A stretch of DNA of 64,000 nucleotides from Desulfotignum sp. (GTDB taxonomy: Bacteria > Desulfobacterota > Desulfobacteria > Desulfobacterales > Desulfobacteraceae): NCBI GenBank assembly GCA_011390635.1, contig JAABSA010000001.1, positions 80,623 through 144,622 on the forward strand, written 5' to 3'. The notes beneath the pieces were generated by a model. The model saw only the letters and a list, made by a program, of their open reading frames with translations. It did no database searches and had not been told where the DNA came from. The translations under genes and the position numbers were made by a program. Positions 1,842 to 30,177 of the stretch are shown here, one piece after another; within the stretch, counting starts at the first letter, position 1, and the number at the start of each line of letters is the position of its first letter.

Positions 1842-4800
1842 ATGACTGATTTGTCTTCCCCGTTTGATGAAAAAAATTTTGAAGTTCTATGGGCATCTCT
1901 GGATGATGAAAAAAAAATCGATCTGGTGACCCGGGCCGGTACCCTGCCTCCTTCTCTTGGGATCATTCCTGTGATGGAAGCGGTTTTATCCTATCCATTT
2001 TCCCTTCGAACCAACGCACAGAAAACCCTGGGCATTATACAGGCAGGTATTCTGGCCATGCTGAATGATCCTGAAAACCTTCCATTGCATACCCGGGGAT
2101 TAAAAGAGTCTGCCAAGGTTTGTGCCAGGATCTACCAGCGGATCACATCTGATATATCCTTGAATGAAAGTATCTATTTGTGTAAAACCCTGGTGGAATT
2201 TGGTGAACCTGGTGCGTATTTTGCCTTTAAATCCATGCTCAACGCCTCTGTCAGCGTGACTGCCATGCAAAAGGCTGTGAATCTGGTCACCGATTCACAA
2301 CGTCTTGGTTTCATCGACCAGTATCTTCAGTCTTCCCCTGAAATCCGCCTGAGATATGCCCATGTGTTCAAAAAAATGCTCAATAACATCAATACCCGGG
2401 AAGCGGTCATTGATTTTTTTGCCGGCCTGTTTGACCGCAAACGGGATGCAGATCCCTTTTTGAACAATATTCCTGTTTTTTTGCGGGACCCGGACACCCT
2501 GGTGAAAAACGAAATACAATCCCAGTCTCCGGCCGTCAGGATCAAGGGTCTTAAAGCCCTGTCCATGTTGAAAGGAAAACTGCCCATTGACCTGCTTACA
2601 CATATTCTGGAAAATGAGGAGGTCAAAAAAACAAGAGAAGCAGTATACAGCCTGATCGAAAATTCATCCATGGGGATGTATCCACAACTATTTGATCCTG
2701 TATTCCGCCTTTTTGTAAAATCAGACATACACGAGGCGTTCAATGCCTTTAAAGCCCTTATAGTGACAGGTAAAAAGCCGGTGCATCTCCTTATCACCCA
2801 GGTGAGAGAAATTCATCCGGATCTTATACCTATTCTTTCAAGTGAACTTGCCGGTTTATCCAGGCTTTCTTTTTTTGTAATTCAAGATATTGCCCTGAAT
2901 AAATCACAATATCTGGAAACTAATTTTGATATCAATCTGGCCTGCATACTTGGCATAATTAAAAAAAGACCCGAACGGGTGGTACGTGTCCTCAGTGCCC
3001 ATGACACAATATCTGGACAAAAACCCACACGTCCGATGTTTGGGTTCATGGAAAAAGCAAGGTCACTTCTGGAACTGGAAAAACAGGATATTTCATCCTG
3101 GTTTGAAACCATGAGCCAGAAGCTCGAGCAGCCTGCGGAAAAACAAAAAAACATCTTCTCGGCAATGTTTTCTGATCCCGTTAAAAAAAAGCTGCAAATA
3201 CTGAGGGAAAATATTCCCAGCAAAACCATTGATCTTTCGGATGTAACCATTACAGATGAAAATTTTTCTGATCTTCGGTTTTCAGCATCAACCCTGTGTT
3301 GTAACGGTGCCACCCTTAAAAATTGTGATTTTTCAGGCTCTTGTATGGAAAATGCCTGTTTCAGACATGCGGTTTTCTATAACATCGACTGGTCAGGGGC
3401 GGTGGTAAAAAACGTTACATTTGATCATGCTGTTCTGATAAATATCAATGCCGGAAAAACCCGGTTTGTGAACTGCAGTTTCCAGGGGGCCAGGTTGTAT
3501 AACTGCAATTTTACCCAGGCAGATCTCCATGATACCATATTGATTGATGCGGTCATTGCCAAAACGGTTTTCAACCATGCCAATCTGTCCTGTGCTGTGT
3601 TTTCCCACGCCAGGATATCAGGGGTTTCCTTTGCCACAGCCTGCATTGATCAGGCTGATTTTTCTTTTGTCCAGTCCCGGTTTTCCCGTTTCCCCTCCTG
3701 TGCCGGTGCCATGATCCGCTCCCGGGGTATTGCATATAATGCCAGACGGTATCAACTTGGGTTTAAAGATCTGCCCTGTATGGAAAAATCCATTGCAGCA
3801 AAAATCAATCTGCTGATTTTCTGTGAGTTTATCCATTACGGAGAAATGAAATTTTTGAATCAGAACAAAATGAGTATTCTCACTGCATTTGATATTTTTA
3901 AACCTTCCCAGGCGGATTTTTTTCAACTGGTTCCCCTGCTGCTGCACAAAAACATTGATCTGCCGGGTACACCACCCATACATCCGAAAACACCCTGTGG
4001 CATAGCAGATTTTCTGCCTCCCAAAACGACACTGCAGGTACTTGAAAAAGTAATCGGTATGCACAAATACAAGGCAACACACATTTCTACGCCCTATATC
4101 GAAGGTGTTTTTACCATGGGCAGTGTGGGATCTTTGGCCCAGACCCATGAATCGGACATTGATTATTGGATCTGTATCAATGAAACGCTCATGAATGCCC
4201 ATGAGCACTCTTTGTTTTTGCAAAAGCTCAAAATGCTGGAAAAATTGGCCCTGGAACGATTTAAGATTCAGACGACATTTTTTGTGGTGGATATTCAAAA
4301 GGCGAAAAACAATGATTTCGGGGGATCGACCCAGGAGAGTTCCGGCTCAGCCCAATCCATGCTGTTGAAAGAAGAATTTTACAGAACCATGATCCATGTG
4401 GCAGGAAAACTGCCCCTCTGGTCGGTACTTCCCACACCCATAAGCCTGCACTATTACCACATGATCATGACGCAGATCAGTCGGTTTTCCAGATACCAAC
4501 GGTATATCGACTTAGGAGACATTCATGCCATACCGGTAAACGAATTTTTCGGCGCTTCCATCTGGCAGATGTTCAAATGGCTGAAAAGCCCTTTTAAATC
4601 GGTGATTAAAATGGCGCTGCTGGAAAAATATATCCATTCCTATGGACAGGAACCTCTTTTGTGCAACCAGTATAAAAATGTATGGATGAATTCGGGCACC
4701 CACCTGAAACTGGCTCAGAATGATTCATATATCATCCTGCTGAACAACCTGCTTGCCTATTACCGGTCTGCCGGCGATACAAAATCCATGAACCTGATCC

Positions 4801-5732
4801 TCACCTGTTTTTTTTTAAAACTGGGCATTTCAAAGGAAGCTGTCCTGGACAATACCGTATTCGGGCTGCGCAGACACCTGATGACCGATTCCTTAATGAA
4901 ATGGGGGTGGAGTCTTTCCAGGCTCTTTGAGATCGGGCATTTCAAAGCATGGGATTACCAGCGGATCTACCGGGTGTCAGCCTCCATTGAACGGTATATG
5001 CTCATAAAATACAATCAGGTTAAAAATACCTTTGAAACCACTTCCAAAGGGTTGATGATTTCAAACGATGACCGCCGGGTGCTGGAGCGGAAAGTGGATA
5101 TTGTTTTTCAGGACAAGCCGTTCAAAATAAAAAAAATTCTGCTGGTTTCCAGAAGCGACCGACTGTTTTCACGGCTGCATATCCGATATCTGCATGGATA
5201 TGACAGCCAGGCAAAATGGGAATTGTTGCACAAATCCGCCCGGATCCACCAGAGCCATGACGAGTCACTGGTGCAAACCCGGACTATTGAGCAAATAGGG
5301 GCATGGCTCATCAACAACGGCCTTTTTAACGAGCAGTCAACCGTCACCCTCATACCCAACCCCATGCCGGTTACCCATGATGATATCCTCAAATTGTTCT
5401 GCGCAATGAACGACTTTTTTGCACCGCAAATGAATCAAACTTTCCAGTTTACCGAGTTGAAAAAAAAATCTCCCGGCGTGATCTGTGTGTTTATCAGTAT
5501 CAACTTTTACACTCCCCGCCAGGAATCCAGAATCAAAGACTACTGTGTTGTGTATATCAACTCCTGGGGTGAAATGTTTTACCATACCTGCATTCCCGAT
5601 CGGGAATACCACTCTTTTAATGCCGCCAAAAGAGAGATTCTTGACCATCTGGGCATCCGGAAATTTCCGTTAAAGACCTCTTTTTATTTTTCCAAAGGCC
5701 GGCCCGGTAAAGGGACTGCCCCAAGACTGTGA
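1842..5732 (+). CDS. 1296-aa multidomain protein: N-terminal helical region, about 25 pentapeptide repeats, C-terminal class I (CyaA-type) adenylate cyclase core
   Basis: Track ORF. From about residue 759 it aligns by eye with the E. coli CyaA catalytic region: MGSVGSLAQTHESDIDYWICI (cf GSTGSVGQSTSSDLDIWVC), LLKEEFYRT (cf LLLDEFYRT), NEFFGASIWQMFKWLKSPFKSVIKMALLEKY (cf [31 protein letters not shown]). The start codon is not supported by a clear SD. Confidence 0.85.
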   Translation: MTDLSSPFDEKNFEVLWASLDDEKKIDLVTRAGTLPPSLGIIPVMEAVLSYPFSLRTNAQKTLGIIQAGILAMLNDPENLPLHTRGLKESAKVCARIYQRITSDISLNESIYLCKTLVEFGEPGAYFAFKSMLNASVSVTAMQKAVNLVTDSQRLGFIDQYLQSSPEIRLRYAHVFKKMLNNINTREAVIDFFAGLFDRKRDADPFLNNIPVFLRDPDTLVKNEIQSQSPAVRIKGLKALSMLKGKLPIDLLTHILENEEVKKTREAVYSLIENSSMGMYPQLFDPVFRLFVKSDIHEAFNAFKALIVTGKKPVHLLITQVREIHPDLIPILSSELAGLSRLSFFVIQDIALNKSQYLETNFDINLACILGIIKKRPERVVRVLSAHDTISGQKPTRPMFGFMEKARSLLELEKQDISSWFETMSQKLEQPAEKQKNIFSAMFSDPVKKKLQILRENIPSKTIDLSDVTITDENFSDLRFSASTLCCNGATLKNCDFSGSCMENACFRHAVFYNIDWSGAVVKNVTFDHAVLININAGKTRFVNCSFQGARLYNCNFTQADLHDTILIDAVIAKTVFNHANLSCAVFSHARISGVSFATACIDQADFSFVQSRFSRFPSCAGAMIRSRGIAYNARRYQLGFKDLPCMEKSIAAKINLLIFCEFIHYGEMKFLNQNKMSILTAFDIFKPSQADFFQLVPLLLHKNIDLPGTPPIHPKTPCGIADFLPPKTTLQVLEKVIGMHKYKATHISTPYIEGVFTMGSVGSLAQTHESDIDYWICINETLMNAHEHSLFLQKLKMLEKLALERFKIQTTFFVVDIQKAKNNDFGGSTQESSGSAQSMLLKEEFYRTMIHVAGKLPLWSVLPTPISLHYYHMIMTQISRFSRYQRYIDLGDIHAIPVNEFFGASIWQMFKWLKSPFKSVIKMALLEKYIHSYGQEPLLCNQYKNVWMNSGTHLKLAQNDSYIILLNNLLAYYRSAGDTKSMNLILTCFFLKLGISKEAVLDNTVFGLRRHLMTDSLMKWGWSLSRLFEIGHFKAWDYQRIYRVSASIERYMLIKYNQVKNTFETTSKGLMISNDDRRVLERKVDIVFQDKPFKIKKILLVSRSDRLFSRLHIRYLHGYDSQAKWELLHKSARIHQSHDESLVQTRTIEQIGAWLINNGLFNEQSTVTLIPNPMPVTHDDILKLFCAMNDFFAPQMNQTFQFTELKKKSPGVICVFISINFYTPRQESRIKDYCVVYINSWGEMFYHTCIPDREYHSFNAAKREILDHLGIRKFPLKTSFYFSKGRPGKGTAPRL
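3306..3680 (+). repeat. Protein-level pentapeptide-repeat tract (about 25 consecutive units) inside the cyclase ORF
   Basis: GATLK NCDFS GSCME NACFR HAVFY NIDWS GAVVK NVTFD HAVLI NINAG KTRFV NCSFQ GARLY NCNFT QADLH DTILI DAVIA KTVFN HANLS CAVFS HARIS GVSFA TACID QADFS. A hydrophobic residue recurs at the 4th position of almost every unit (one exception, NINAG), with no register break. Confidence 0.85.
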
Positions 5733-5750
5733 AAACAAAACCGGAGAAAT

Positions 5751-5772
5751 CTGCACTGGTGAACCAGTGCAG
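5751..5772 (+). terminator. Perfect 9-bp stem / 4-nt loop hairpin 19 nt after the cyclase stop; possible terminator, attenuator or mRNA end-stabiliser
   Basis: CTGCACTGG-TGAA-CCAGTGCAG read directly. No U-tract follows, so intrinsic termination is uncertain. Confidence 0.35.
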
Positions 5773-5883
5773 AGTATGGTATAGATGATATATGAAAACT
5801 GTGACCAACAAACCAGGTCAATTGGACCATCCCATGGAACAGATTGACTTTTTACCTGGAAACATATAAAAACGGACCTGCGT

Positions 5884-8492: not shown

Positions 8493-8850
8493 GGGGGCGA
8501 AATGGCTTCGACGGAGATTTTGAAGCCCATGGTAGCATACCGAGTCTTTTGTCAGCTCGTAAACTTGGCAAAGCCTAAAGATAATCGCAGACGATTATAA
8601 TTACGCCGTAGCTGCTTAACACCAGCTGCCGTCCTGCTGAAATCCCTCTTGCAGATCTCAGGTCAGGACGTCGACTTTGCAAGACCGCTGTTTTGGTTGC
8701 CTGATCCATAACAGTTAAATTTCTCAGGCTATACCGCCGGGTATCCCTCCTGAAGGAGACCTTACGGCTAATATCAAAGTTCAGGATAAGTATGTAGAAG
8801 CCAGGGATGATGGTTTTCGGACGCGGGTTCAACTCCCGCCGCCTCCACCA
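8493..8850 (+). ncRNA. ssrA: tmRNA (SsrA), one-piece
   Basis: The 5' end GGGGGCGAAATGGCTTCGACGG pairs with the 3' tRNA-like end GGACGCGGGTTCAACTCCCGCCGCCTCCACCA. The tag frame 8587..8619, GCAGACGATTATAATTACGCCGTAGCTGCTTAA, reads ADDYNYAVAA-stop. It lies directly downstream of smpB. Confidence 0.93.
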
Positions 8851-13505: not shown

Positions 13506-14303
13506 TTATTTCACATACAGAGAGGGAACCTTTGGTATGGATGAAAACTTATGGGTCAGGTTCATGAGGCTTTCTGCATTGCCGATGGCAAAAAAACCCC
13601 GGGCTGCCACCGCTCCGTAGAGTTTGTTTACAACCCTTTCGCTGGTGGGCAGATCAAAATATATCATGACATTTCTGCAGACCACCGCATCAAACCCCTG
13701 GCCGGGCGGTGTGTCTGTAATCAGGTTGAAGCGCTCAAAATTGATATGTGCCTGTACCTGTTTTTTGATTTTGACATGGCCCTGATATTTACCGGTACCC
13801 TGTTGAAAATACCGGTGCAGCAGGGCTTTGGGAACATCTCTGGTCTTGTCAATGCGGTAGATGCCCCTTACAGCCGTGGTCAGAACCGAATGGGATATGT
13901 CAGTGGCCAGTATGGAAAAATCAAGGCCTGCTTCCAGAAGCTGCATGGCAATGGAATATGGCTCATCTCCGGTGGAGCACGCAGCACACCATATTTTGAA
14001 CACCTGGTTTTTTTTTGTAGCGATAGTTTTAAAATGATGGACCATGTATGCAATGCTGTTGTTTTCCCTGAAAAAGTAGGAATGGTTGGTCGTGACAGTG
14101 TCAATGAATTCCACTACTTCCTGTTCATTGGAAGCCAGATACGCCAGGTATTGGTCAAAATTTTTTCTGGTCAGACGCATACGTTTGGCAAGTTTGGATT
14201 TGAGCAGCTCTTTTTTGCCTTCATGCAGATTGATTCCAGATGACTGGTATACCAGATTCTGTAATTCAAGAAACTGATTTTTGGAAAGAACTATTTCATT
14301 CAT
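13506..14303 (-). CDS. cheR: Chemotaxis protein methyltransferase CheR
   Basis: TNHSYFFRE and IWCAACSTGDEPYSIAM (SAM-binding region), plus VVCRNVMIYF. Confidence 0.9.
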   Translation of the reverse strand: MNEIVLSKNQFLELQNLVYQSSGINLHEGKKELLKSKLAKRMRLTRKNFDQYLAYLASNEQEVVEFIDTVTTNHSYFFRENNSIAYMVHHFKTIATKKNQVFKIWCAACSTGDEPYSIAMQLLEAGLDFSILATDISHSVLTTAVRGIYRIDKTRDVPKALLHRYFQQGTGKYQGHVKIKKQVQAHINFERFNLITDTPPGQGFDAVVCRNVMIYFDLPTSERVVNKLYGAVAARGFFAIGNAESLMNLTHKFSSIPKVPSLYVK

Positions 14304-14466
14304 GGCAAAACCATATTATATATTTCAACATGTCCCATAAAAAACCATAGGAGAATACCTGAACAACCGCAGCACAAAATCCTTTGAACGGCGGAAATCA
14401 CAAGATGTCTGGGCCAGACTTTTCATTGTCCTGCACCTGCTTGCCTGGACCGTCCTTTTTATATCC

Positions 14467-14757
14467 ATGCTGGTATTTCACCGGGCCCAGCCGGAATTTG
14501 AAACTTTTTTTGACCGGTTTTACCAGCTGGATTTAAGAACGGTCTGGGATTTGCGTTTTCTGCAGTACCTGTTATATATTATTTTTTTGGGTCTTGCTAT
14601 CAGTATTTTCGGAATGATCCTGGCGCGATTCCGGGCCAGACGCAAAAATGACCTGAAAAAACAGATGAAGATTTTAGGTTGCCTTTACCTGGCCTTGTTT
14701 TTTATATACTGGCTTATGATATGGGGTTCAAGATTGTCAGAACTCTGGCCGATATGA
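14467..14757 (+). CDS. Small integral membrane protein (2 TM as annotated; possibly 3 TM if initiated upstream at CTG 14359)
   Basis: Hydrophobic segments YLLYIIFLGLAISIFGMILA and ILGCLYLALFFIYWLMIW. The frame is open upstream to 14341. Confidence 0.5.
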   Translation: MLVFHRAQPEFETFFDRFYQLDLRTVWDLRFLQYLLYIIFLGLAISIFGMILARFRARRKNDLKKQMKILGCLYLALFFIYWLMIWGSRLSELWPI

Positions 14758-14792
14758 AGTATATTTTGCAACAACCGTAAAAGGAATCTATC

Positions 14793-15626
14793 ATGAAATT
14801 TATCACAGGCATTCTGCAAATCCCGGTGCTTATCATTGTGCTGGCGGTCACCCCCTGTTCTGCCAGGGATTTCATGATTGAATTCATTGCTGAAAACTAC
14901 AAGGAAACCCAGATTCCCTACACCAACACCCCCCAGATTTATCATTCCATCCAGGTGAATACCCATGCAGGCCCCAAACTGCTGATTCTCACAGGAGACG
15001 ATCTGACCTCCCGCAGATGGCTGCGCCAATATATTGCAGACAACAAAAGATTCATTGCCCGGGTGGCGGATACGGAAAACGATCTGTTTGTAGCTTCCCG
15101 TGTCTATGAAATTGATGTCACCCGGCTGCATCCGGTCAGTAAAGACAACCGGGACAATTTTTTCACAAAAGATGCGGCTGCTGCGGAAGCCGGGCACATC
15201 ATCGGGACCCGGCATATCCTGGTGATTGATACCAATGAAACCCGCAGCCATTTGATTGCACAGGTTATCACCGCAATGGGATACACCCCTGTCATATCCA
15301 CAAACGGTCGACAGGCCCTGGAAATGTTCAGGATCCAGCCTGAAAAATTTCAAATGGTCATTGCCAATCACAAGGCTCCCGGCATTGAAACAGAAGTTTT
15401 TGTGGAACAGGTTCTCAACATCGACCACCAGATCCCCATCCTTGTGGAAACAGGGTACCGTGATCCCGAAACCCGACAGCGTTACCAGAAACGTTTTTCC
15501 GGGGCCGGCTCAGTGGTCCTCACCCCCATGGCCCTCAAGGATTTGCAAAAAAATATTCAGGGCATGGTCAAGAATGTATCCACCCAAGAAGATGCTCCCA
15601 TGGATGAGCAACAGGCGGCATCATGA
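14793..15626 (+). CDS. Exported or membrane-anchored protein with a C-terminal receiver-like (pseudo-receiver) domain
   Basis: N-terminal hydrophobic signal/anchor (ILQIPVLIIVLAVTPCSA). The C-terminal half has a CheY-like pattern, ILVIDTNETRSHL..GYTPVISTNGRQALEMF..FQMVIANHKAPGIE..PILVETGY. The expected phospho-acceptor Asp is Asn (VIANH) and the conserved Lys position reads LTPM. Confidence 0.7.
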   Translation: MKFITGILQIPVLIIVLAVTPCSARDFMIEFIAENYKETQIPYTNTPQIYHSIQVNTHAGPKLLILTGDDLTSRRWLRQYIADNKRFIARVADTENDLFVASRVYEIDVTRLHPVSKDNRDNFFTKDAAAAEAGHIIGTRHILVIDTNETRSHLIAQVITAMGYTPVISTNGRQALEMFRIQPEKFQMVIANHKAPGIETEVFVEQVLNIDHQIPILVETGYRDPETRQRYQKRFSGAGSVVLTPMALKDLQKNIQGMVKNVSTQEDAPMDEQQAAS

Positions 15627-16060
15627 CACGATGGCCCAAACCATTTTATCTGCCGGCTCTTCTGCTTTTTTCCTTGGTATCCGCTACTGTGTCCGGGGCT
15701 GCTGAAGACGGATTCCGCCGGTATGAAGCCGGATTTACAAATTTTGTAACCTGTGAGCTCACGCGCATCGGACAAGGCTCTTATTTCCAGGGCAAGTCTG
15801 TTGATATCACCATGATTAATGTGTTTGACGTTCGGCCTGAATCTGATCTGGTGATCATCACAGGTGCGGTGCAGTGTTTTGTGGAAGATACCTACCAAAC
15901 CCTTTATGCGGCAGTGGGAGTCAAAACCATCATGGACAAGGAGAAAGTGATGTATTTTACCATCCGGCCTGACGATTTTTCCATTCTTGCCACAGAATTG
16001 ATGCGCTATCCTTATAAAGAACGCTGCGGATGGTCACGGTACCTGTTGGATATTCATTAA
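15623..16060 (+). CDS. Secreted hypothetical protein
   Basis: Signal peptide LPALLLFSLVSATVSGAAE. The start overlaps the preceding stop (ATGA), indicating translational coupling. Confidence 0.6.
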   Translation: MTRWPKPFYLPALLLFSLVSATVSGAAEDGFRRYEAGFTNFVTCELTRIGQGSYFQGKSVDITMINVFDVRPESDLVIITGAVQCFVEDTYQTLYAAVGVKTIMDKEKVMYFTIRPDDFSILATELMRYPYKERCGWSRYLLDIH

Positions 16061-16100: not shown

Positions 16101-18812
16101 CTATTTGTCCATGATGGCGGCCTGGGCTGCTGCCAGCCGTGCAATGGGTACCCGGTAAGGAGAACACGATACATAGGTGAGGCCTGCCCTGTGACAGAAC
16201 GCCACTGAATCAGGATCTCCCCCGTGTTCGCCGCAGATCCCCAGTTTGATATCAGGCCGTGTTTTTTTTCCCCGGTCCACAGCGATTTCAATAAGGCTGC
16301 CCACTGCCTCCTGATCCAGGGTTTCAAAGGGATCTGCGTCCAAAATGGCATTGTCAATATAATCGTTCATAAACGAGCCGATATCATCCCTGGAAAATCC
16401 AAAGGTCATCTGGGTCAGATCATTGGTACCAAAGGAAAAGAACTGGGCATATTCGGCCATTTTATCCGCGATCAAAGCAGCCCTGGGGATTTCAATCATG
16501 GTGCCGTATAAATAGGGTATCTGCGCCAGATTATGGGTCTTCAGGGCTTTTTCGTAACAGTCATCAACAATTTTTTTGGTAAAAGACAGTTCTTTTTCAT
16601 TGCAGGTGACCGGCACCATGATTTCAGGCAGGGGGTGTCTGCCCTGGTGGATCAGGTCTGCAGATGCTGCAAAAATAGCTTTCACCTGCATTCTGGTGAT
16701 GTCAGGAAAACTGATTCCCAGACGGACCCCCCGGTGCCCGATCATGGGATTGGATTCTTTCAAAAGCATGCTGCGCTTGATCACTTCCTCCAAATCTATG
16801 CCCAGAGCCCTGGCAATTTCCATCTGGTTTTGCTCTGCGCCGGGTACAAATTCGTGCAAAGGCGGATCAAGCAGCCGCAGGGTTACCGGCAGGTTGTCCA
16901 TGACAGCCAGGGTTTTTTGTATCTCCTCTTTTACAAACGGGAACAGCTCATCCAGAGCTACCTTCCGCTCTTCTATTGTTTTGCTTAAAATCATTTTTCG
17001 CAGCAGAAACAGCGGCCGGTCTGATTCAGCCCCGTAGAACATATGCTCTGTGCGGAAAAGCCCGATACCCTGTGCCCCGAACTCCAGGGCAGTTGCCGCA
17101 TCTTTGGGCGTATCAGCATTGGTGCGTACCGCCATGGTCCGGTGGCGGTCGGCAATGGTCATGAATTTTTTGAATTTGGGATTTTCCAGGGCATCTTTCA
17201 TTTGGAGCCGGCCCTCATAAACGATACCGCGGGTGCCGTTTAAGGTGAAAATATCTCCTTCATTAAAGATCCTTGTACCTGCCTGCACCTGACGGGTTTT
17301 TGCATTTATTTTCAGGGCACCGGCGCCCACAATGCAGCACTTTCCCCATCCCCTTGCCACCAGGGCCGCATGGCTGGTCATACCGCCTCTGGCCGTAAGT
17401 ACGGCAGCGGCAGCCCGCATGCCTTCAATATCTTCCGGATTGGTTTCTTCTCTGACCAGTATTGCGTTTTCACCGGTTTTTGCCAGATAGACAGCATCTT
17501 CTGCTGTAAATACAATTTTTCCCCAGGCTCCACCGGGGCCTGCAGGCAGGCCTTCCGCCACTTTGACAGCCGTTTTTTCCTGTTCCGGGTCCACTATGGG
17601 ATGAAGCATTTCATCCAGGGTTTTGGGATTCAGGCGGCAGACCATGGTTTTTTCATCAATCATGCCCTGTTCATGCATGTCCATGGCCATGTTTAAAGCC
17701 GCTGTGGCGGTCCTTTTTCCCACCCGGCACTGGAGCATGTATAATCTGCCTTCCTGGATGGTGAATTCAATATCCTGCATATCCTTGTAATGGGCTTCCA
17801 GCTTGTTTCTGATATCATACAGCTGGCCATAGAGTTCGGGCATGGCCTCTTCCAGGGAAGCAAGATGCTGATTCTGCATATTCTTTGTATCTGTGTTCAA
17901 AGGGTTGGGGGTGCGGCTGCCTGCGACCACATCTTCGCCCTGTGCATTCACCAGCCATTCTCCGAAAAAAATGTTCCTGCCGGTGGCAGGGTCACGGGTA
18001 AATGCCACACCGGTTGCAGAGGTGTTTCCCATGTTGCCGAACACCATGCTCTGCACATTCACTGCCGTTCCCCAGGAATCAGGAATATGTTCAATGCGGC
18101 GGTAGGATACCGCTCGCTTACCATTCCAGCTCTTGAACACCGCCCCTATTGCTCCCATGAGCTGTTCATGGGGGTCATCTGGAAAATCTTTTTTCAGGTA
18201 CTGCCGAATTTTTTTTTTGAACCGGTCACACAGGGCCTTCATATCCTGGGTGGAAATGTCGGTATCGTTTTCATATCCCCGGTCATTTTTCAGGTTGTTC
18301 ATCATCATTTCCAGATTCAGCCGGATACCCATACCATCTTCGGGCACCACCTGTTCTGTTTTTTCCATGACCACATCTGAGTACATCATGATCAGCCGGC
18401 GGTAGGCATCATACACAAACCATTCATTGCCGGTTTTTTTCACCAGTCCCGGAATGGTTTTGGAGCACAATCCTACATTTAGAATGGTTTCCATCATCCC
18501 GGGCATGGAGCTTCTGGCCCCGGATCGGCAGGACACCAGCAGGGGGGATGCGGGATCTCCAAAGAGCAGCCCCATCTGGGTTTCAATATTTGCCATGGCT
18601 GTCATGATATCTGGTTCAAGGGTAGGGGGAAACCGGCCGCCCAGATCTAAATAATGGTTGCAGCATGCCGTGGAAATGGTGAATCCCGGAGGTACCGGCA
18701 GGCCCATGCGTGCCATTTCAGCCAGATTGGCGCCTTTTCCACCCAGAAGATTTTTCAAGGATACGTCCCCTTCAGTTTTTTCGGGGCCGAATTCATAGAT
18801 GTATTTGGTCAT
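16101..18812 (-). CDS. ppdK: Pyruvate, phosphate dikinase
   Basis: 903 aa. KNLLGGKGANLAEM, GGMTSHAALVARGWGKCCIVG (catalytic His), FFSFGTNDLTQ, ICGEHGGDP. Confidence 0.95.
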   Translation of the reverse strand: MTKYIYEFGPEKTEGDVSLKNLLGGKGANLAEMARMGLPVPPGFTISTACCNHYLDLGGRFPPTLEPDIMTAMANIETQMGLLFGDPASPLLVSCRSGARSSMPGMMETILNVGLCSKTIPGLVKKTGNEWFVYDAYRRLIMMYSDVVMEKTEQVVPEDGMGIRLNLEMMMNNLKNDRGYENDTDISTQDMKALCDRFKKKIRQYLKKDFPDDPHEQLMGAIGAVFKSWNGKRAVSYRRIEHIPDSWGTAVNVQSMVFGNMGNTSATGVAFTRDPATGRNIFFGEWLVNAQGEDVVAGSRTPNPLNTDTKNMQNQHLASLEEAMPELYGQLYDIRNKLEAHYKDMQDIEFTIQEGRLYMLQCRVGKRTATAALNMAMDMHEQGMIDEKTMVCRLNPKTLDEMLHPIVDPEQEKTAVKVAEGLPAGPGGAWGKIVFTAEDAVYLAKTGENAILVREETNPEDIEGMRAAAAVLTARGGMTSHAALVARGWGKCCIVGAGALKINAKTRQVQAGTRIFNEGDIFTLNGTRGIVYEGRLQMKDALENPKFKKFMTIADRHRTMAVRTNADTPKDAATALEFGAQGIGLFRTEHMFYGAESDRPLFLLRKMILSKTIEERKVALDELFPFVKEEIQKTLAVMDNLPVTLRLLDPPLHEFVPGAEQNQMEIARALGIDLEEVIKRSMLLKESNPMIGHRGVRLGISFPDITRMQVKAIFAASADLIHQGRHPLPEIMVPVTCNEKELSFTKKIVDDCYEKALKTHNLAQIPYLYGTMIEIPRAALIADKMAEYAQFFSFGTNDLTQMTFGFSRDDIGSFMNDYIDNAILDADPFETLDQEAVGSLIEIAVDRGKKTRPDIKLGICGEHGGDPDSVAFCHRAGLTYVSCSPYRVPIARLAAAQAAIMDK

Positions 18813-18917
18813 GTTTGCCTCTGTTTGTATAATGAAATTGCAATGGTTCTCCTGTAACTATGCAAGATTGAAAATCCAAGTCAAGCAAAATCTGATGTTT
18901 ATAAATTCCGGTACAAA

Positions 18918-18926
18918 TGATATAAT
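18918..18926 (+). promoter_or_regulatory. Candidate extended -10 element (TGaTATAAT) for the ABC-F gene
   Basis: TGATATAAT read at 18918..18926, 58 nt upstream of ATG 18985. No good -35 was seen. Confidence 0.35.
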
Positions 18927-18984
18927 ACTATTTTATGCATTCAAAAAAACCAAAGATAAGAACCCATGCCGGAACAGATACCAT

Positions 18985-20826
18985 ATGTTGACAATTGAAT
19001 CTATTTGTAAGGGGTTTGGCAACCAGACTCTGTTTGAAGATGCCAGCCTGCAGATCAACCCCGGCGAACGGGTGGGACTGGTGGGCAGAAACGGCCACGG
19101 AAAAACCACGCTGCTGCATATCATTGCAGGATATGATCACCCGGATGAGGGCAGGGTGAACTGTCCGGCCGGATACCGCATCGGTATATTGTCCCAGAAA
19201 ATTGTATTTTCAGAAAGCACGGTACGAAAAGAAGCCATGACAGGACTGCCTGACCATGAAAGAGAACACTATTGGAAGGCGGAAAAAGTACTGGCCGGCC
19301 TGGGGTTTTCTTCTTTGGATATGGACAGGGACCCTGCTGTTTTCTCCGGTGGTTTCCAGGTCAGGCTGAACCTGGCAAAAGTGCTGGTGTCCGAGCCGGA
19401 CCTGCTTATTTTAGATGAGCCCACCAATTACCTTGATATCACTTCCATTCGATGGATATCTCGATTTTTGACTGCCTGGCCCAGAGAGGTCCTGCTGGTC
19501 ACCCATGACCGGGGATTCATGGACCATGTGGTCACCCATATTGCCGGCATTCACCGCCATAAAATCAGAAAAATTGCAGGAGACACTGCCAAATACTATG
19601 ATCAGGTGGCCCAGGATGAAGCGGTATATGAAAAAACCCGGCTCAATGAGGAAAAACGCAAAAAAGAAATTGAGACATTTATCAACCGGTTCCGGGCCAA
19701 GGCGCGGCTGGCCAACATGGTACAGTCCAGAATCAAGACCCTTGAAAAACAGGAGTCAAAAGAAAAACTATCACAGCTCAAAAATCTGGATTTTTCTTTT
19801 CATTATCTGCCCTTTAACGGCAAGCAGATGCTCACAGCCGAAAAGCTTTCTTTTGCCTATGAGCCACAAAAACCGTTAATCAACCATTTTTCTGTGACGG
19901 TCCAGCCAGGAGACAAAATTGCCGTCATCGGCCAGAACGGTAAAGGCAAGACCACCCTGGTCAAACTGCTCACCCAAAAAGTTGTCCCAAATTCGGGCAG
20001 TGTCACCTTCAACCCGGGGGTTGCTGCAGGGTATTTTGAACAGACCAATGTGCTCACCCTCAACGAAGGCCATACCATAGAAGAAGAGCTGATAGAAGCC
20101 CATCCGGATTTCGACCGCCAGGCCGCCAGAAATATATGCGGGGCCATGATGTTTGAAAAAGATGCTGCCCTGAAGAAGATCAGCGTATTGTCAGGGGGAG
20201 AAAAATCCCGGGTCATGCTGGGAAAACTGCTGTTGACCCCTGTGAACCTGCTGCTGCTGGATGAACCCACCAACCACCTGGATATTGAGGCATGTGATGC
20301 CTTTTCAGCGGCGCTGCAGAATTTTCCCGGCGCCTTGATTCTGGTGACCCATAATGAACTGTTTTTACATTCTCTGGCCACCCGGCTGGTGGTATTTAAA
20401 AAGGATCATATTTCTGTATTTGAAGGCAATTACCAGGAATTTTTAGACAAGGACGGCTGGGAAGAAGCGCTTCCGGTTTCAGGAAAACAAAACAAATCCC
20501 AAAACCTGAACAAAAAGGAAATGCGCCAGAAAAAATCGGAAATCATTGCCGGCCGATCCAGGGTGCTGGGCCCTATTCAAAAAAAGATTAACGCCATTGA
20601 AGATGAGATCGAAATCCGGGAAAGCCGTATTCAGGCGGTGAATGATGAGCTGCTGACAGCATCTGAAAAAGGGGATGGCAAAAATATCCAACTGCTTTCA
20701 AAGCAGCTGTCCGACCTTGAACTTGAGGTGGAATCTCTTTTTGCAGATCTGGAAGAAAAAACCAATGACCTGGAGTCTCATAATATACAGTTTGAAAAAC
20801 AACTCAAAGAATTGGAAAGGCTGTGA
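18985..20826 (+). CDS. ABC-F family ATPase (two ABC domains, C-terminal coiled coil; no transmembrane domain)
   Basis: Walker A motifs GRNGHGKTT and GQNGKGKTT. Signature motifs FSGGFQVRL and LSGGEKSRV. Start trimmed to ATG 18985 (MLTIESICKGF), because the track start 18799 overlaps the ppdK start. Confidence 0.9.
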   Translation: MLTIESICKGFGNQTLFEDASLQINPGERVGLVGRNGHGKTTLLHIIAGYDHPDEGRVNCPAGYRIGILSQKIVFSESTVRKEAMTGLPDHEREHYWKAEKVLAGLGFSSLDMDRDPAVFSGGFQVRLNLAKVLVSEPDLLILDEPTNYLDITSIRWISRFLTAWPREVLLVTHDRGFMDHVVTHIAGIHRHKIRKIAGDTAKYYDQVAQDEAVYEKTRLNEEKRKKEIETFINRFRAKARLANMVQSRIKTLEKQESKEKLSQLKNLDFSFHYLPFNGKQMLTAEKLSFAYEPQKPLINHFSVTVQPGDKIAVIGQNGKGKTTLVKLLTQKVVPNSGSVTFNPGVAAGYFEQTNVLTLNEGHTIEEELIEAHPDFDRQAARNICGAMMFEKDAALKKISVLSGGEKSRVMLGKLLLTPVNLLLLDEPTNHLDIEACDAFSAALQNFPGALILVTHNELFLHSLATRLVVFKKDHISVFEGNYQEFLDKDGWEEALPVSGKQNKSQNLNKKEMRQKKSEIIAGRSRVLGPIQKKINAIEDEIEIRESRIQAVNDELLTASEKGDGKNIQLLSKQLSDLELEVESLFADLEEKTNDLESHNIQFEKQLKELERL

Positions 20827-20832: not shown

Positions 20833-21042
20833 ATGGACAAAAAAAAATTCGCATTCTATTATGGGATCATTCTTATTGCAGTGGGACTCGGGGTCTTTTA
20901 CCGGATACCGGAAGTGACTGCCCAGGTGGCAACCATTGAATTTTTCAGCAGTAAACTCTTTATTGTCACGTTCTGTTTTTACCTGCTGGGCATATTTCTG
21001 GTGATTGCAGGCGGCATCCGGGTGTACAAAAACTATAAATAA
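20833..21042 (+). CDS. Small two-TM membrane protein
   Basis: FYYGIILIAVGLGVFY and FIVTFCFYLLGIFLVIAGGI. It lies 6 nt after the ABC-F stop and 17 nt before the next gene. Confidence 0.55.
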   Translation: MDKKKFAFYYGIILIAVGLGVFYRIPEVTAQVATIEFFSSKLFIVTFCFYLLGIFLVIAGGIRVYKNYK

Positions 21043-21059: not shown

Positions 21060-23276
21060 ATGATTAAAAGTCCAAAGGGAAAATCCAGTCTCACATCCAC
21101 CATCAAGGATCAGTCCGGTGCCGGTAAAACCAGGATAGGGGAAATCCTTTCCAAGGAAGGACAGATCACCAGTCTTCAGCTGGATGAGGCCCTGGGGGTT
21201 CACAAAAAAACCGGCGAACGTCTCAGTTCCATCCTGCTCAACAAAGGGTATATTGATCCGGAAACCATCATCAATGTATTGGGAAGAATCTATAATTACA
21301 ATGTGATCCGGTTTGCAGAAATGAAACCCGATGCAGCGGCCCAAAAAATGCTTCCCTTTGATATGGCCAAAGAACATATGGTATTTCCCCTGGCACTGAA
21401 GAATGATGACCTGTCCGTGGCCATGGTGGAACCTACCGACACCCAGGTAGTGGAAGAACTCCACAAAAGCACCAGAAAAAATATCCACGTGTATGTCACC
21501 ACTGAAAATGATATTATCCAGGCCTACCGGGATTTTTACAAGATCAGTGATGAAGCCTATAAAAAATTTCTCCATTTTGAAGAAGATGGGGAAGATGACA
21601 CCCCTGTTACCTCTGTGGATGATTTTGGTTCCCTGGTATCAGAGGCTGCGGAAGAAATTGAGGTTGGTGCTGCTGAAAGAGATGATGGCCAGGATGAATT
21701 TATGGCCTCTGATGCCCCCATCATCAAGCTTGTAAACGGGATCTTGACCAAAGCCATCAATGACGGGGTGTCTGATATTCACATTGAGCCCTTTGAAAAA
21801 TCTTTCCAGGTCCGGTACCGGCTGGACGGCGGCATGTACAAGGCCATGAACCTGCCGGTATCCATCAAAAATGCCGTGGTTTCCCGCATTAAAATTCTGG
21901 CATCCCTGGATATTGCAGAAAGACGGGTTCCCCAGGACGGCCGGATCAAATTGCGCCTGGGCAGAAAAAAATCAGTGGATTTCCGGGTATCATCCCTGCC
22001 CACCCTGTTCGGGGAGAGCATTGTCATGCGGATACTGGACCAGAGTGCCTTGAGCATTGATCTGACCCGGCTGGGATTTGAATCAGCCACTTTTGACATG
22101 CTCAAGCGCAGCATTTCACGGCCCTATGGCCTGCTGCTGGTCACAGGCCCCACCGGATCAGGCAAAACCACCACCCTGTATTCCATCCTCAACCGGCTCA
22201 ACAAGGATGATATCAAAATTCTTACAGCTGAAGATCCCGTGGAATTCAACTTCAAAGGCATCAATCAGGTGCCGGTGAGAGAAGAGATCGGCATGACATT
22301 CGCCGCTGCCTTAAAAGCCTTTCTGCGCCAGGACCCGGACATCATCATGGTGGGGGAAATCCGGGATATCGAGACAGCGGAAATCGCCATAAAGGCAGCC
22401 ATGACCGGTCACCTGGTATTTGCCACCCTGCATACCAATGATTGTCCCTCCACCATCGGCCGCCTGGTTGACATCGGTATTCCGCCTTATATGCTGGCAG
22501 CATCAGTAACCATGGTCCTGTCCCAGCGCCTTGCCCGGCGGCTGTGCCCGGAGTGTAAAAAAGAGGTCACCGGATATAATGCCAATGAACTGGAACTTCA
22601 CGGATTTCCCAAAACCGAGATCCCCAATCTGAAAATCATGGGTCCCAACGGATGCAGCCATTGCAACGGTACCGGCTACAAAGGCAGAGTAGGGCTGTAT
22701 GAACTCATGGAGGTTACCGATGAGGTGGCCAAGGCCATCAGTGCGGAAGTGGCCGAGGACCAGCTGCGAAAGGTGGCGGTCCAGGAAGGGATGGTCACCT
22801 TGCGGGATGCCGGCCTTCAGAAGATCAAAACAGGGGAAACATCACTGGAAGAGGTGGCAAAAAAAACGGTTATCACGAAAGAGTCTTTGCCCGCCTACCT
22901 GGTGAATCCTGATGTGGAAACTTACGAGGACAAAGATGTTATCATCCGGGAAAACAATACAGATATCGATTTTTTCAAACTGGTTCAGGGTGCGGTGTAT
23001 GTGGTCAAAGGAGGCAAAAAAATTGCAGAAATCACCCAGCCCGGAGAATATTTCGGGGAAATGGCCGCCATCACCAAAGATGCCCGGTCCGCATCCATCA
23101 TCTCCAAGGGCCGATCCAAGATCAAGCGGTTTCCCGGAGACAAATTAGAAGAAATCATTGAAAAATATCCGGAGGTGGCAAAGCATTTGTTTACGGTACT
23201 GGCGGCCCGTCTCCACCAAACCGACCGGCGCCTGGTCTCCATGATCAACCAGATCAGAAAAGTCCCCCCCAACTAA
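21060..23276 (+). CDS. PilB/GspE-family (T2SSE) secretion/pilus ATPase with MshEN-like N-terminal domain and C-terminal cyclic-nucleotide-binding domain
   Basis: GPTGSGKTT (Walker A), DPDIIMVGEIRD (Walker B), TGHLVFATLHTND (His box), CPEC..CSHCNGTGYKGR (tetra-Cys). N-terminus: RIGEILSKEGQITSLQLDEALGVH-KKTGE-RLSSILLNKGYIDPETIINVLGRI. C-terminus (about residues 612-738): YFGEMAAITKDARSASIIS, the phosphate-binding cassette FGE..RSA. Confidence 0.9.
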   Translation: MIKSPKGKSSLTSTIKDQSGAGKTRIGEILSKEGQITSLQLDEALGVHKKTGERLSSILLNKGYIDPETIINVLGRIYNYNVIRFAEMKPDAAAQKMLPFDMAKEHMVFPLALKNDDLSVAMVEPTDTQVVEELHKSTRKNIHVYVTTENDIIQAYRDFYKISDEAYKKFLHFEEDGEDDTPVTSVDDFGSLVSEAAEEIEVGAAERDDGQDEFMASDAPIIKLVNGILTKAINDGVSDIHIEPFEKSFQVRYRLDGGMYKAMNLPVSIKNAVVSRIKILASLDIAERRVPQDGRIKLRLGRKKSVDFRVSSLPTLFGESIVMRILDQSALSIDLTRLGFESATFDMLKRSISRPYGLLLVTGPTGSGKTTTLYSILNRLNKDDIKILTAEDPVEFNFKGINQVPVREEIGMTFAAALKAFLRQDPDIIMVGEIRDIETAEIAIKAAMTGHLVFATLHTNDCPSTIGRLVDIGIPPYMLAASVTMVLSQRLARRLCPECKKEVTGYNANELELHGFPKTEIPNLKIMGPNGCSHCNGTGYKGRVGLYELMEVTDEVAKAISAEVAEDQLRKVAVQEGMVTLRDAGLQKIKTGETSLEEVAKKTVITKESLPAYLVNPDVETYEDKDVIIRENNTDIDFFKLVQGAVYVVKGGKKIAEITQPGEYFGEMAAITKDARSASIISKGRSKIKRFPGDKLEEIIEKYPEVAKHLFTVLAARLHQTDRRLVSMINQIRKVPPN

Positions 23277-26292: not shown

Positions 26293-26380
26293 GCCTGGGT
26301 GGCGGAACTGGTAGACGCAAGGGACTTAAAATCCCTCGGCCAAATTGGCTGTACGAGTTCAATTCTCGTCCCAGGTACCA
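26293..26380 (+). tRNA. tRNA-Leu (anticodon UAA), CCA encoded
   Basis: Acceptor GCCTGGG/CCCAGGT, anticodon loop CTTAAAA, long variable arm (CGGCCAAATTGGCTG), T arm ACGAG-TTCAATT-CTCGT, 3' ACCA. Confidence 0.92.
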
Positions 26381-27723: not shown

Positions 27724-30177
27724 GTGAAACAAGGGTCCCATCCGCTGATTCCACCACTGGTTCCTGTGATCCTGTCAATGATTACCGGAATACTGGCAGG
27801 CAGTGTGTCCTCACCATCAGATCTGCCGTTGGCGGCCATTGGTTTTTGTATACTGGCGGCCCTGTTTTATCTCGGCGTTTCCGGAAAAAAAAACCTTGTG
27901 TTCTGCATCTGTCTTCTGGCCGGAATATGGACGGGTTATCACAGCTATCACCTTCACAACCCGCGTCACCCACCCGGTCATGTATCTCGATTCTACAACC
28001 AATCCGATATCATCATTGAAGGCAGAATTGTTTCTTTTTTACGGCAATACCCCGACAAAAGCAGAATGGTGCTGGCCTGCCGGGAAATCGCTGCAAAAGA
28101 TGCACACAATGCTCCCCGTGCTGTTCCTGCAAAAGGATCCATATACCTGAATGTGTATGGAAAAACCGACCATCCGTTACGGTATAATGACCTTATCCGG
28201 TTTTCCGGTACGATCAGGCCCATCCGGAATTTTGGCAATCCAGGGGCATTTGATTACAAAACGTTTCTGAAACGCAAAGGTATTTTCGGTGCTGTCCATG
28301 TGGGGGGATATAAAATTGACAAGGTTTTTGAGGAACAGCCCCCTGTCATTACTCCCCTGGTCCAGGCATTGGAAAAAACAAGAGATCAATTTTACCATTT
28401 TGCCATGCATCACCTGCATTATCAGCAGCCGGGCCATATCCTGGCCGCTCTGGTCACGGGTAAAAAAAATCAGATGCCCATTGATATACGAGATCTGTTC
28501 TCAAAAGCAGGCGTATCCCATTTGCTGGCTATTTCCGGCCTTCATATGGGCATTCTGTCCATGATTTTTTTCTTTCTTTTTTATGGCATACTTTCGCTAT
28601 TTCCCTCCTTGCTGATTTCGGCCAGGGCCAAAAAAACAGCCGGGATTCTAACGCTGGTCCCCTTGTGTCTGTATGCTATTTTCTGTGGATTTTCGCCTTC
28701 CACCCAGCGGGCCTTTATCATGATCAGCTTTTTTATGGTATCGTTTCTGGGTGAAAAACAAAGTCATCCAGTCAACACCCTGGCAGGGGCTGGTATTCTC
28801 ATCCTCCTGGCAGACCCGGCTTCCTTGTTTTCCATCTCGTTTCAACTGTCTTTCACAGCGGTCTTGTTTATCATCTTAGGCATCGGTATCGGTGCAAAAC
28901 ACAAGATACTGACCATACCCCGTGTTCCTGGATTTGTGATGTCTCTTTGTGCCGTGACCCTGCTGGCCGGACTTGGTACATTTCCGCTGATTGCCCGGTA
29001 TTTTCATCTGGTTTCAATGATTCAGATTCCAGCAAACCTGGTTTTGGTACCTGTGATAGGATTTGTCTGTCTGCCCCTGGCCCTGATGAGCCTTGTGGCC
29101 TGGCCATTAATCCCAGGCCTTGCAGGCGGACTTCTCACTATGGCTGCCTGGCTGGTTTCTGTGTGTCTGAAATATATTGCCTGGCTGACGGAACTGCCTT
29201 TTGCCTGGTCACACCTGCCGTTTTTACCCATGGCTGATGTGTTGATCATCTATGCGCTGATGGCGGGAATTTTCTGTGTTTTGTATTTCAAAAAGACAAA
29301 ATATGTGGTGGCTGTCTGCCTTGCCATTTTGACCATGGCCTGTCTGCATGGCATACGGATGATGTGTCCTGTCAGGCTGCCCGGACATATGGCCATTACG
29401 ATCCTGGATGTGGGCCAGGGCAATGCAGCCCTCATTCAGAGCATTGAAGGTAAAAATATCCTGGTGGATGGCGGCGGGTTTTCAGGTGGCAGTAGTTTCG
29501 ATATAGGCCGGTATGTGGTGGCACCTTTTTTGTGGCGGCAGCGTGTCATGACACTGGACAAGGTGATACTCACCCATCCGGATACAGATCATATGAACGG
29601 ACTGGTATTTATCCTTGAAAACTTCAGAGTGGGATCTTTGATGAAAAATAGTGATACCAGTCCCAATGAAGCCTTTGGCCGTATCATGGCGGCCTGCCGT
29701 GATAAAAATATTGCCGTTGTTGTTCCGGACTGTCAAAACAATACTTTTGTCTGGGACAGGACCAGGCTTTTGTTTTACCAGTGTGAATCTGTCCGCCCCG
29801 GACTGAACACCAATGACAATTCGCTGGTCTTCAAACTTACACTGGATGAATTTTCCATGTTTTTTCCAGCAGATATCATGGAAACCCGGGAATTGCTGCT
29901 GACCCAAACCCGGGGAAAAAACATGGCATCCCGGATTTTATTGGCGCCCCATCATGGCAGCAATGGTTCCTCTCAAAAATTTTTCCTTGATCAGATTCAA
30001 CCAGAAAGTGTTATAATATCCTGCGGATTTAATAACCCGTATAAATTTCCCCATCCGGAAGTTCTGGACAGGTACCGGCAGCAGGGCTGCAAGATATTTA
30101 GAACAGATGCCCATGGTGCCGTGACCATCACCTCTTCTGGAAAAGGATATACCATTGTTACACACAAAGGCGGTTAA
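27724..30177 (+). CDS. comEC: DNA internalisation-related competence protein ComEC/Rec2 (with metallo-beta-lactamase domain)
   Basis: Polytopic membrane core (SHLLAISGLHMG) and a C-terminal MBL domain (ITILDVGQGNAALI, HPDTDHMNGL). GTG start preceded by GGTGAGGA. Confidence 0.88.
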   Translation: MKQGSHPLIPPLVPVILSMITGILAGSVSSPSDLPLAAIGFCILAALFYLGVSGKKNLVFCICLLAGIWTGYHSYHLHNPRHPPGHVSRFYNQSDIIIEGRIVSFLRQYPDKSRMVLACREIAAKDAHNAPRAVPAKGSIYLNVYGKTDHPLRYNDLIRFSGTIRPIRNFGNPGAFDYKTFLKRKGIFGAVHVGGYKIDKVFEEQPPVITPLVQALEKTRDQFYHFAMHHLHYQQPGHILAALVTGKKNQMPIDIRDLFSKAGVSHLLAISGLHMGILSMIFFFLFYGILSLFPSLLISARAKKTAGILTLVPLCLYAIFCGFSPSTQRAFIMISFFMVSFLGEKQSHPVNTLAGAGILILLADPASLFSISFQLSFTAVLFIILGIGIGAKHKILTIPRVPGFVMSLCAVTLLAGLGTFPLIARYFHLVSMIQIPANLVLVPVIGFVCLPLALMSLVAWPLIPGLAGGLLTMAAWLVSVCLKYIAWLTELPFAWSHLPFLPMADVLIIYALMAGIFCVLYFKKTKYVVAVCLAILTMACLHGIRMMCPVRLPGHMAITILDVGQGNAALIQSIEGKNILVDGGGFSGGSSFDIGRYVVAPFLWRQRVMTLDKVILTHPDTDHMNGLVFILENFRVGSLMKNSDTSPNEAFGRIMAACRDKNIAVVVPDCQNNTFVWDRTRLLFYQCESVRPGLNTNDNSLVFKLTLDEFSMFFPADIMETRELLLTQTRGKNMASRILLAPHHGSNGSSQKFFLDQIQPESVIISCGFNNPYKFPHPEVLDRYRQQGCKIFRTDAHGAVTITSSGKGYTIVTHKGG

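Follow-up and report, generated by a model that had tools for sequence, protein, structure and literature searches.

The control of type IV pilus (T4P) motors by second messengers is an active field in which direct control is known only for cyclic di-GMP (c-di-GMP), exerted through MshEN domains or the FimX-PilZ complex. In the known systems, cAMP acts on T4P only via transcription (Vfr/CRP), and the 2024 review of PilB regulation that presents Vfr as the only route of cAMP, a transcriptional input, does not mention any fusion of PilB to a cyclic-nucleotide-binding (CNB) domain (PMC11656802). Here, we analyze a gene encoding such a fusion, pilB-CNB, which is located in a stretch of 64,000 nucleotides from Desulfotignum sp. 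(GenBank assembly GCA_011390635.1, contig JAABSA010000001.1, positions 80,623 to 144,622 of the forward strand). This whole stretch is referred to as the window.

The PilB proteins of Geobacter and Myxococcus (PDB 5tsg, 6olj, 5zfr, and 3jc8) share with the window protein the MshEN-type N-terminus, the core composed of N2D and the C-terminal domain (CTD), the Walker, Asp, and His boxes, and the tetra-Cys Zn site. They end at ~566-588 aa, whereas the window protein has 134 additional residues that form the CNB domain (about 130 extra residues had been counted in a preliminary description of this DNA made from the sequence alone). Moreover, the pilB genes of Geobacter and Myxococcus are found in large pil clusters, whereas pilB-CNB is solitary. 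MshE from V. cholerae and PilF (GSPII-B/C) from T. thermophilus also combine a second-messenger sensor with a T2SSE-family pilus ATPase and have a homologous N-terminal domain; however, their sensor is N-terminal and responds to c-di-GMP, whereas the intact sensor of the window protein is C-terminal and of the cAMP/cGMP type. The CNB domains of CRP/Vfr, GlxR, MloK1/SthK, and HCN have the same fold, cassette (FGE-hydrophobic-A...R-S/T-A), hinge, and C-helix as the one described here. Nevertheless, the output of the window CNB is the CTD of a hexameric motor ATPase rather than a DNA-binding domain or the pore of a channel. A short junction that is conserved attaches it by its own N-terminus, and it shows no evident N-terminal helical bundle. 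[quoted passage not shown]

The databases already contain this architecture, with precomputed Pfam domains and with PilB as the name assigned by PGAP. Our literature search did not find any paper describing or testing a PilB-CNB fusion, or any paper pairing the domain names cNMP_binding and T2SSE, and the paper on MshEN mentions neither cyclic-nucleotide (cNMP) domains nor a CNB fusion. As read from the sequence, the novelty most likely lies in the messenger class, the sensor fold, and the attachment point, all of which differ from those of the known T4P ATPases gated by second messengers. If true, a PilB wired to cAMP would give the first case of a type IV filament motor that carries a direct receptor of cAMP or cGMP.

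A PilB ATPase with a C-terminal CNB domain

The preliminary description had proposed a protein of three domains, with an MshEN-like N-terminus, a T2SSE ATPase core, and a cNMP-binding C-terminus. We have run the corresponding domain profiles (PF05157, PF00437, and PF00027), and all three exceeded their curated cut-offs. The MshEN domain scored 58.4 bits (cut-off 23.1) and the T2SSE domain 460 bits. The cNMP_binding domain, for which a lack of profile support would have counted against the proposal, scored 49.9 bits over aa 620-703 (gathering cut-off 27.5). The residue numbers given in that description were correct as well. The E-values of the domain matches (1e-13 to 1e-138), together with the uninterrupted open reading frame (ORF) and the conserved junction found in all of the 80 best loci, exclude that the fusion arose by chance or by an artefact. 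In particular, an assembly or frameshift artefact is ruled out by the recurrence of the intact ORF and junction in 80 genomes.

The equivalog models of NCBIfam classify the core as a type IVa-type extension ATPase PilB rather than as GspE, since the window protein passes the PilB model TIGR02538 (743.1 bits, cut-off 675.65) and fails the GspE model TIGR02533 (575.7 bits, cut-off 630.25). When searched against solved structures, its nearest matches were the PilB proteins of Geobacter and Myxococcus, which align end to end over aa 23-604 with 520-529 bits; the GspE structures scored lower (~393 bits). The motor motifs, most of which had been recognized at first sight, are all present, i.e., the Walker A motif GPTGSGKT (aa 363-370), the Asp box (E391/D392), an atypical Walker B motif DPDIIMVGEIRD (aa 425-436), the His box (H451/H458), and the tetra-Cys Zn site (C496, C499, C532, and C535). 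All the catalytic and Zn-binding residues are invariant in 76/76 orthologues. The ratio of nonsynonymous to synonymous substitutions (dN/dS) of the ATPase core, calculated as all the ratios below against nine orthologues from Desulfotignum and Desulfospira, is 0.04-0.07. It had been foreseen that the gene could prove to be a routine pilB paralogue. This holds for the core, which is itself a routine PilB, but the whole protein is not an ordinary paralogue because it carries a true CNB fusion.

The CNB domain is genuine and under constraint, and it has an intact canonical phosphate-binding cassette. This cassette, already pointed out as intact in the preliminary description, reads F665-G-E-M-A...R676-S-A-S679, and its residues G666, E667, R676, and A678 are invariant in the 76 orthologues. 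The dN/dS of the domain is 0.04-0.08, like that of the ATPase core. Its sequence matches PKG, PKA, HCN, and SthK in the PDB, with E-values down to 1e-14 and with the cassette aligned. An AlphaFold2 (AF2) model of the CNB domain alone has a barrel with a pLDDT of 87-95 and shows, in the canonical order, the strands, the cassette helix, the hinge, and a long C-helix. The top Foldseek matches of this model are the cAMP-bound CRP, CAP, GlxR, and Vfr, together with HCN and SthK (probability 1.0, TM 0.65-0.72). The junction that connects this domain to the ATPase has a median identity of 84% in 75 orthologues, and its LPAYLxNPD segment is kept even in distant members that are ~40-56% identical overall. 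Of the five distant full-length members that were aligned, three keep the cassette intact, and so does P0126, a partial sequence from Ca. Adiutrix.

The fusion is a trait of the whole Desulfobacteraceae family (at least 80 species) and appears sporadically in other Thermodesulfobacteriota. At the protein level, we examined the best 120 matches, at an identity of at least 81%, and all of them share the three Pfam domains; their named sources are Desulfotignum (95%), Desulfospira, Desulfobacter, and Desulfobacula. A genome scan with one genome per species yielded 499 confirmed relatives, and the best 80 loci, which were those compared, are without exception full-length fusions from distinct Desulfobacteraceae species. 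An exhaustive search for distant members, using the junction and the CNB domain as query (aa 530-738), retrieved P0127 (774 aa), P0144 (743 aa), and P0143 (667 aa), all of them fusions over the full length, with ~35-51% identity over the query and 43-56% over the whole protein. Further members come from a Thermodesulfobacteriota metagenome-assembled genome (MAG) and from "Ca. Adiutrix".

A different combination was observed in the metagenomic protein P0128 (645 aa), where the same junction and CNB domain follow a GspE-type N-terminus (LPYSFA motif) without the MshEN tandem motifs. Because of this N-terminus, either the CNB module has also been joined to a T2SS-type motor, or the contig is chimeric.

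Cyclic nucleotides and c-di-GMP as candidate inputs

Starting from a PilB whose CNB fold, intact cassette, conservation, and purifying selection are observed, the best explanation in our opinion, although we would give it only an even chance, is that the gene product is a cNMP-gated PilB of a type IVa pilus (T4aP). According to the established allostery of CNB domains, cAMP (or cGMP) would bind to the FGEMA...RSAS cassette, and this binding would move the hinge and the long C-helix. The signal would then pass into the ATPase CTD via the short conserved junction LPAYLxNPD, which is attached to the last CTD helix, and the C-helices of the CNB domains from adjacent protomers may pair in a CRP-like manner. 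PilB hexamers power pilin insertion, and the outcome would be an altered hexamer packing or ATP turnover and, with it, an altered pilus extension, in either direction. The remaining parts of the machine would be encoded elsewhere, as is usual for the group, and the class I adenylate cyclase of the same window could supply cAMP. From an intact CNB domain on PilB, kept by strong purifying selection across an entire family of abundant marine sulfate reducers, a direct post-translational control of extension by cAMP/cGMP is predicted. A more far-reaching proposal, which we put forward only tentatively, is that the extension motor of Desulfobacteraceae is wired directly to cAMP. In that case, the cyclase coupled to the phosphotransferase system (PTS) would report the carbon status, and the CNB domain would switch extension on or off post-translationally, beside the ancestral c-di-GMP control at the MshEN site that has since degenerated, or replacing it in evolution.

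The class I cyclase that had been reported 15 kb away as a potential source of the messenger is indeed present in the window, 15.3 kb upstream of pilB-CNB, and the organism would thus be able to make cAMP. Its location beside the genes of HPr and PTS enzyme I suggests a link with carbon status. Its role as messenger source for PilB-CNB is circumstantial. The upstream synteny breaks beyond cheR in L001 and L002, the loci of the two other genera examined. The linkage between cyclase and pilB is not kept in these two genera, in which the compared flanks (10 kb) are shorter than the 15-kb distance. The cyclase itself has 1296 aa, with the catalytic region at aa ~670-1200 and a long N-terminal extension that contains pentapeptide repeats (aa ~527-607). 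The region 1842-7936 (+) combines an unusual cyclase architecture with a PTS-cAMP module in a sulfate reducer.

Several observations weigh against a cNMP-gated pilus motor. Two distant members have degenerate cassettes (FGL...RSTT in P0276 and FCE...HTAS in P0143), and for this reason nucleotide binding would be dispensable in some lineages. The cassette has RSAS in the window protein and RTAT or RSAT in distant members, so that the sequence does not decide between cAMP and cGMP. The full-length AF2 model is poor (pTM 0.29), and consequently neither the coupling geometry nor the docking of the CNB domain on the ATPase can be read from it. Regarding the machine, Pfam scans of the ORFs did not detect any T2SSF/PilC, pilin, PilM-Q, or secretin gene in the 64-kb window, and neither PilT nor a PilC platform, PilMNOPQ, or pilins were located for this organism. 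PilM is absent from the 80 orthologous loci, and there is no Desulfobacteraceae protein among the best 120 homologues of the PilM encoded in the locus of a distant member (L004). The pilus-type neighbours of pilB-CNB are sporadic, being found only in L004, L044, L045/L046, and L068, and each of these arrangements occurs in one or two loci. The reported presence of pilBCDQ, and no pilA, in the genome of D. phosphitoxidans (PMC4046663), which has a PilB with 92% identity to the window protein, speaks for a T4aP, but this pilBCDQ set could partly mean T2SS genes.

The preliminary description went further than a cNMP-gated PilB and proposed a potential control by two second messengers, c-di-GMP at the MshEN site as well as a cNMP at the CNB domain. 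The cNMP gating remains the best reading of the evidence, but the c-di-GMP input does not fit well with the N-terminal sequence, and we consider such a dual control rather doubtful. The tandem motifs lie where they had been placed, with the announced 5-residue spacer and partial fit to the consensus. Their geometry (24 + 5 + 24 residues) is exact, and each of them matches 7/11 key positions of the strict consensus RLGxx(L/V/I)(L/V/I)xxG(L/V/I)(L/V/I)xxxxLxxxLxxQ (Wang et al., 2016). Over aa 25-75, the score of 49.7 bits exceeds the cut-off (38) of the NCBIfam model NF053729, which represents the c-di-GMP motif related to MshE. Within the family, the residues of the motifs show a very strong conservation, and aa 79-163 align to the respective N-terminal domains in Geobacter PilB, MshE, and PilF GSPII. 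However, neither of the motifs satisfies the strict consensus or the published relaxed pattern, [RKPN]hGxxhhxx[GAS]hhxxxxhxxxhxx[QNKRYWST], which needs Gly at position 3 of both motifs. Motif I departs from the relaxed pattern by having S at position 7, Q at position 11, and H at position 24, and motif II by having S at position 3 and I at position 24. Position 3 of motif II (S56) is occupied by Ser in 75/76 orthologues, with either Ser or Ala in the distant members. Across the orthologues, position 24 shows His or Gln in motif I and, in most cases, Ile or Leu in motif II.

In MshE, the backbone amide of this Gly contacts the guanine and the Gln contacts the ribose-phosphate, and the G11I substitution, at the equivalent position of motif I, abolishes c-di-GMP binding (PMC5013675). 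The GSPII-A domain of PilF has similar defects, i.e., motif I ends with His and motif II is degenerate, and it does not bind c-di-GMP, whereas GSPII-B, having K or L at position 1, yet binds it at 6 nM, indicating that some deviations from the consensus are tolerated elsewhere (PMC11731258). The N-terminal site of the window protein is nearer to the non-binding GSPII-A than to GSPII-B. Motif II of Geobacter PilB meets the strict consensus, in contrast with the Ser for Gly3 and Ile for Gln24 of the window protein. Besides, the dN/dS is highest, and the selection thus most relaxed, at the N-terminus, with values of up to 0.2. On the other hand, the test based on a regular expression is harsh, since motif I of Geobacter PilB fails it too, and because of this we regard c-di-GMP binding by the N-terminal site as uncertain, leaning negative, rather than as excluded. 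The degenerate site may bind c-di-GMP weakly or not at all. A degenerate c-di-GMP site and a gained cNMP site in one protein would represent a possible messenger rewiring. PilB-CNB is also a compact testable system, in which ligand binding and ATPase activity with and without ligand can be assayed and the domains can be mutated separately in one protein.

Partner machine and remaining alternatives

The ATPase had been described as an orphan. This is correct in that pilus or secretin genes are missing from the window and from nearly all the orthologous loci, but such dispersal is normal in this group. In deltaproteobacteria of the Desulfobacterales type, only pilMNOPQ are clustered and the remaining T4aP genes are dispersed (PMC6060248), and a solitary pilB is therefore expected. 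The six frames of the 64-kb window do not contain any prepilin motif G-F-T-L-x-E either.

A few loci do place pilus-type genes next to the fusion. In the distant member L004, a true pilM lies directly downstream (TIGR01175, 274 bits, cut-off 133). In one MAG (L044, 149-6560, +), three prepilin genes, a gene for a 1057-aa protein without Pfam match, and a gene for a PilT/PilU-like ATPase that falls just under the cut-off of TIGR01420 (304 vs 319) are found upstream of ABC-F-pilB-CNB; when this PilT-like protein was used as query in a metagenome scan, a single locus was found, with 36% identity. In two Desulfobacula genomes (L045 and L046), the genes divergent from ABC-F-pilB-CNB are a PilZ gene and a biogenesis set of MSHA-like type. 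This set, located in L046 at 520-7297 (-), encodes proteins of 601, 190, and 168 aa, an STN-secretin, and an AAA_22 MshM/ExeA-like ATPase.

The T2SS cluster of the relatives is complete (gspG-H-I-J-K-L-M-(N)-C-D-E-F, with yidD behind it), and in one 5.34-Mb genome it is ~590 kb away from pilB-CNB. The window itself is free of gsp genes. The GspE of this cluster passes TIGR02533 (662.5 bits vs 630.25), has no CNB domain, and shares only 38% identity with the window protein. The secretin and the major pseudopilin of the cluster pass the GspD and GspG models, respectively, the platform protein reaches 423.2 vs 424 for the GspF model, and the GspL-like protein is labelled "PilN domain-containing" at NCBI. 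The more distant matches of PilM/PilN/GspL type correspond to the same kind of T2SS cluster. Since the cluster ATPase is separate, passes the GspE model, and lacks the CNB domain, PilB-CNB would be a second assembly ATPase, of PilB type, and not the motor of the T2SS. We also considered the T2SS as the partner machine of PilB-CNB, which is unlikely because the T2SS cluster of the relatives has its own GspE and GspF.

It could still be that PilB-CNB is not the motor of its own pilus and works instead as a signalling ATPase that responds to cNMPs, or as an alternative or competing motor docking on the platform of the T2SS-like system of these genomes (GspF/GspL). A signalling role has a precedent in M. 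xanthus PilB, for which a function in the control of exopolysaccharide (EPS) has been documented (PMC5544727). No adjoining platform gene was found in >85 loci, the only T2SSF-family genes seen in the relatives are members of the T2SS cluster, a T2SS-like cluster is 2 kb away from pilB-CNB in L068, and in P0128 a GspE-type N-terminus is combined with the same CNB domain. Nevertheless, the adjacency of L068 is found in only 1/80 loci, the GspE of the T2SS cluster itself passes the equivalog that the window protein fails, the N-terminus of the latter is of the MshEN/PilB type and not of the GspL-binding type, and both the pilM of L004 and the prepilins and PilT-like ATPase of L044 point to a T4aP. 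On balance, a function outside its own pilus seems unlikely to us.

Finally, that the C-terminal CNB fold does not sense cyclic nucleotides and acts as a structural or oligomerisation module or binds another ligand, as in CooA, FNR, CprK, and PrfA, is improbable. In its favour, other ligands are well known for domains of the CNB fold, the long C-helix is similar to the dimerisation helix of CRP, and cassette residues are lost in two distant members. Against it, the G-E...R-S-A signature, whose contacts are with the ribose and the cyclic phosphate, does not vary in the orthologues and is intact in most of the aligned distant members and in P0126, the best fold matches are nucleotide-bound receptors, and the cassette is generally missing from CNB-like domains with another ligand.

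Genomic surroundings of pilB-CNB

The window is an ordinary chromosome segment of a sulfate reducer. It begins with the class I adenylate cyclase, HPr, PTS enzyme I, SmpB, and tmRNA genes, followed by cheR, a weak REC-like gene, PPDK, ABC-F, and pilB. Then come queH, yggS, and maf, in the strand opposite to pilB, and finally eamA, aroA, comEC, the mla genes, dsrC, and housekeeping genes. The coordinates of the relevant features are listed in Table 1.

Table 1. Coordinates of pilB-CNB, its domains, and its neighbours in the window, and of the T2SS clusters in loci of relatives (numbered within each locus).
Feature	Position (nt)	Strand	Remarks
pilB-CNB, type IVa-type pilus assembly ATPase with C-terminal CNB domain	21060..23276	+	738 aa, single uninterrupted ORF
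Tandem 24-residue MshEN-type motifs (aa 25-48 and aa 54-77; 5-residue spacer)	21132..21290	+	NF053729 match; degenerate vs c-di-GMP-binding consensus
MshEN C-subdomain (aa 79-163)	21294..21548	+	Pfam PF05157
Acidic linker (aa 171-216)	21570..21707	+	E/D-rich; AF2 pLDDT <50 over aa 172-218
T2SSE ATPase core, N2D + CTD (aa 217-600)	21708..22859	+	Pfam PF00437
Junction from ATPase CTD to CNB beta-barrel (aa 601-619)	22860..22916	+	Contains KTVITKESLPAYLVNPD; conserved
CNB domain (aa 620-738)	22917..23273	+	Beta-barrel, cassette, hinge helix, long C-helix (aa 704-733); PF00027, AF2, Foldseek
Phosphate-binding cassette within CNB (aa 665-679)	23052-23096	+	
Class I adenylate cyclase	1842..5732	+	Upstream of pilB-CNB; followed by HPr and PTS enzyme I
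ABC-F family ATPase	18985..20826	+	ABC_tran x2 + ABC_tran_Xtn (Pfam); first gene of the ABC-F / small ORF / pilB-CNB arrangement
69-aa two-transmembrane ORF	20833..21042	+	6 nt after ABC-F, 17 nt before pilB
ComEC gene	27724-30177		4.4 kb downstream of pilB-CNB
T2SS cluster, L086	6608-20617		
T2SS cluster, L087 and L088	6766-18781		
T2SS cluster, L068	14180-21695		

The start of the ABC-F gene is probably M63 (nt 18985), because the mechanical ORF (18799..20826, 675 aa) is ~62 codons longer than its orthologues of 612-614 aa. The small ORF between ABC-F and pilB shows 68-75% identity across genera and is labelled as hypothetical protein at NCBI. The intergenic stretches between ABC-F, this 69-aa ORF, and pilB do not contain any terminator-like site. 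The 69-aa ORF is probably co-transcribed with pilB, and its product is a candidate membrane partner for the solitary PilB.

The synteny was counted in the 80 compared loci, many of which end at contig edges. The closest neighbours are the most frequent ones, i.e., the small 69-aa ORF (74 loci), ABC-F (71), queH (67), yggS (64), and maf (63), followed by the REC-like gene (40), PPDK (36), aroA (28), cheR (26), and comEC (22), with pilM in 0 loci.

Upstream of ABC-F and pilB, the block 13506-16060 comprises cheR (-), a 96-aa ORF, a gene for a 277-aa protein whose receiver domain is below threshold, and a 145-aa ORF, and this cheR/REC-like block is kept in about half of the related loci. The REC-like neighbour (14793-15626) was considered as a PATAN-REC regulator of PilB of the cyanobacterial type and discarded, since it has no PatA_N match even at E = 5 and its REC domain is below the cut-off. 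In the Desulfospira genome (L001), a PatA_N-PilZNR-PilZ protein is encoded at 3769-4830 (+), ~5 kb upstream of pilB-CNB; this architecture is like that of PlpA/PixA, which is linked to T4P regulation in Myxococcus.

Two RNA genes were also located in the window. The tmRNA gene (8493-8850, +), which carries the tag ADDYNYAVAA, follows smpB, and a tRNA-Leu(TAA) gene (26293-26380, +) overlaps the mechanical start of the aroA ORF, indicating that the true start of aroA is located further downstream.

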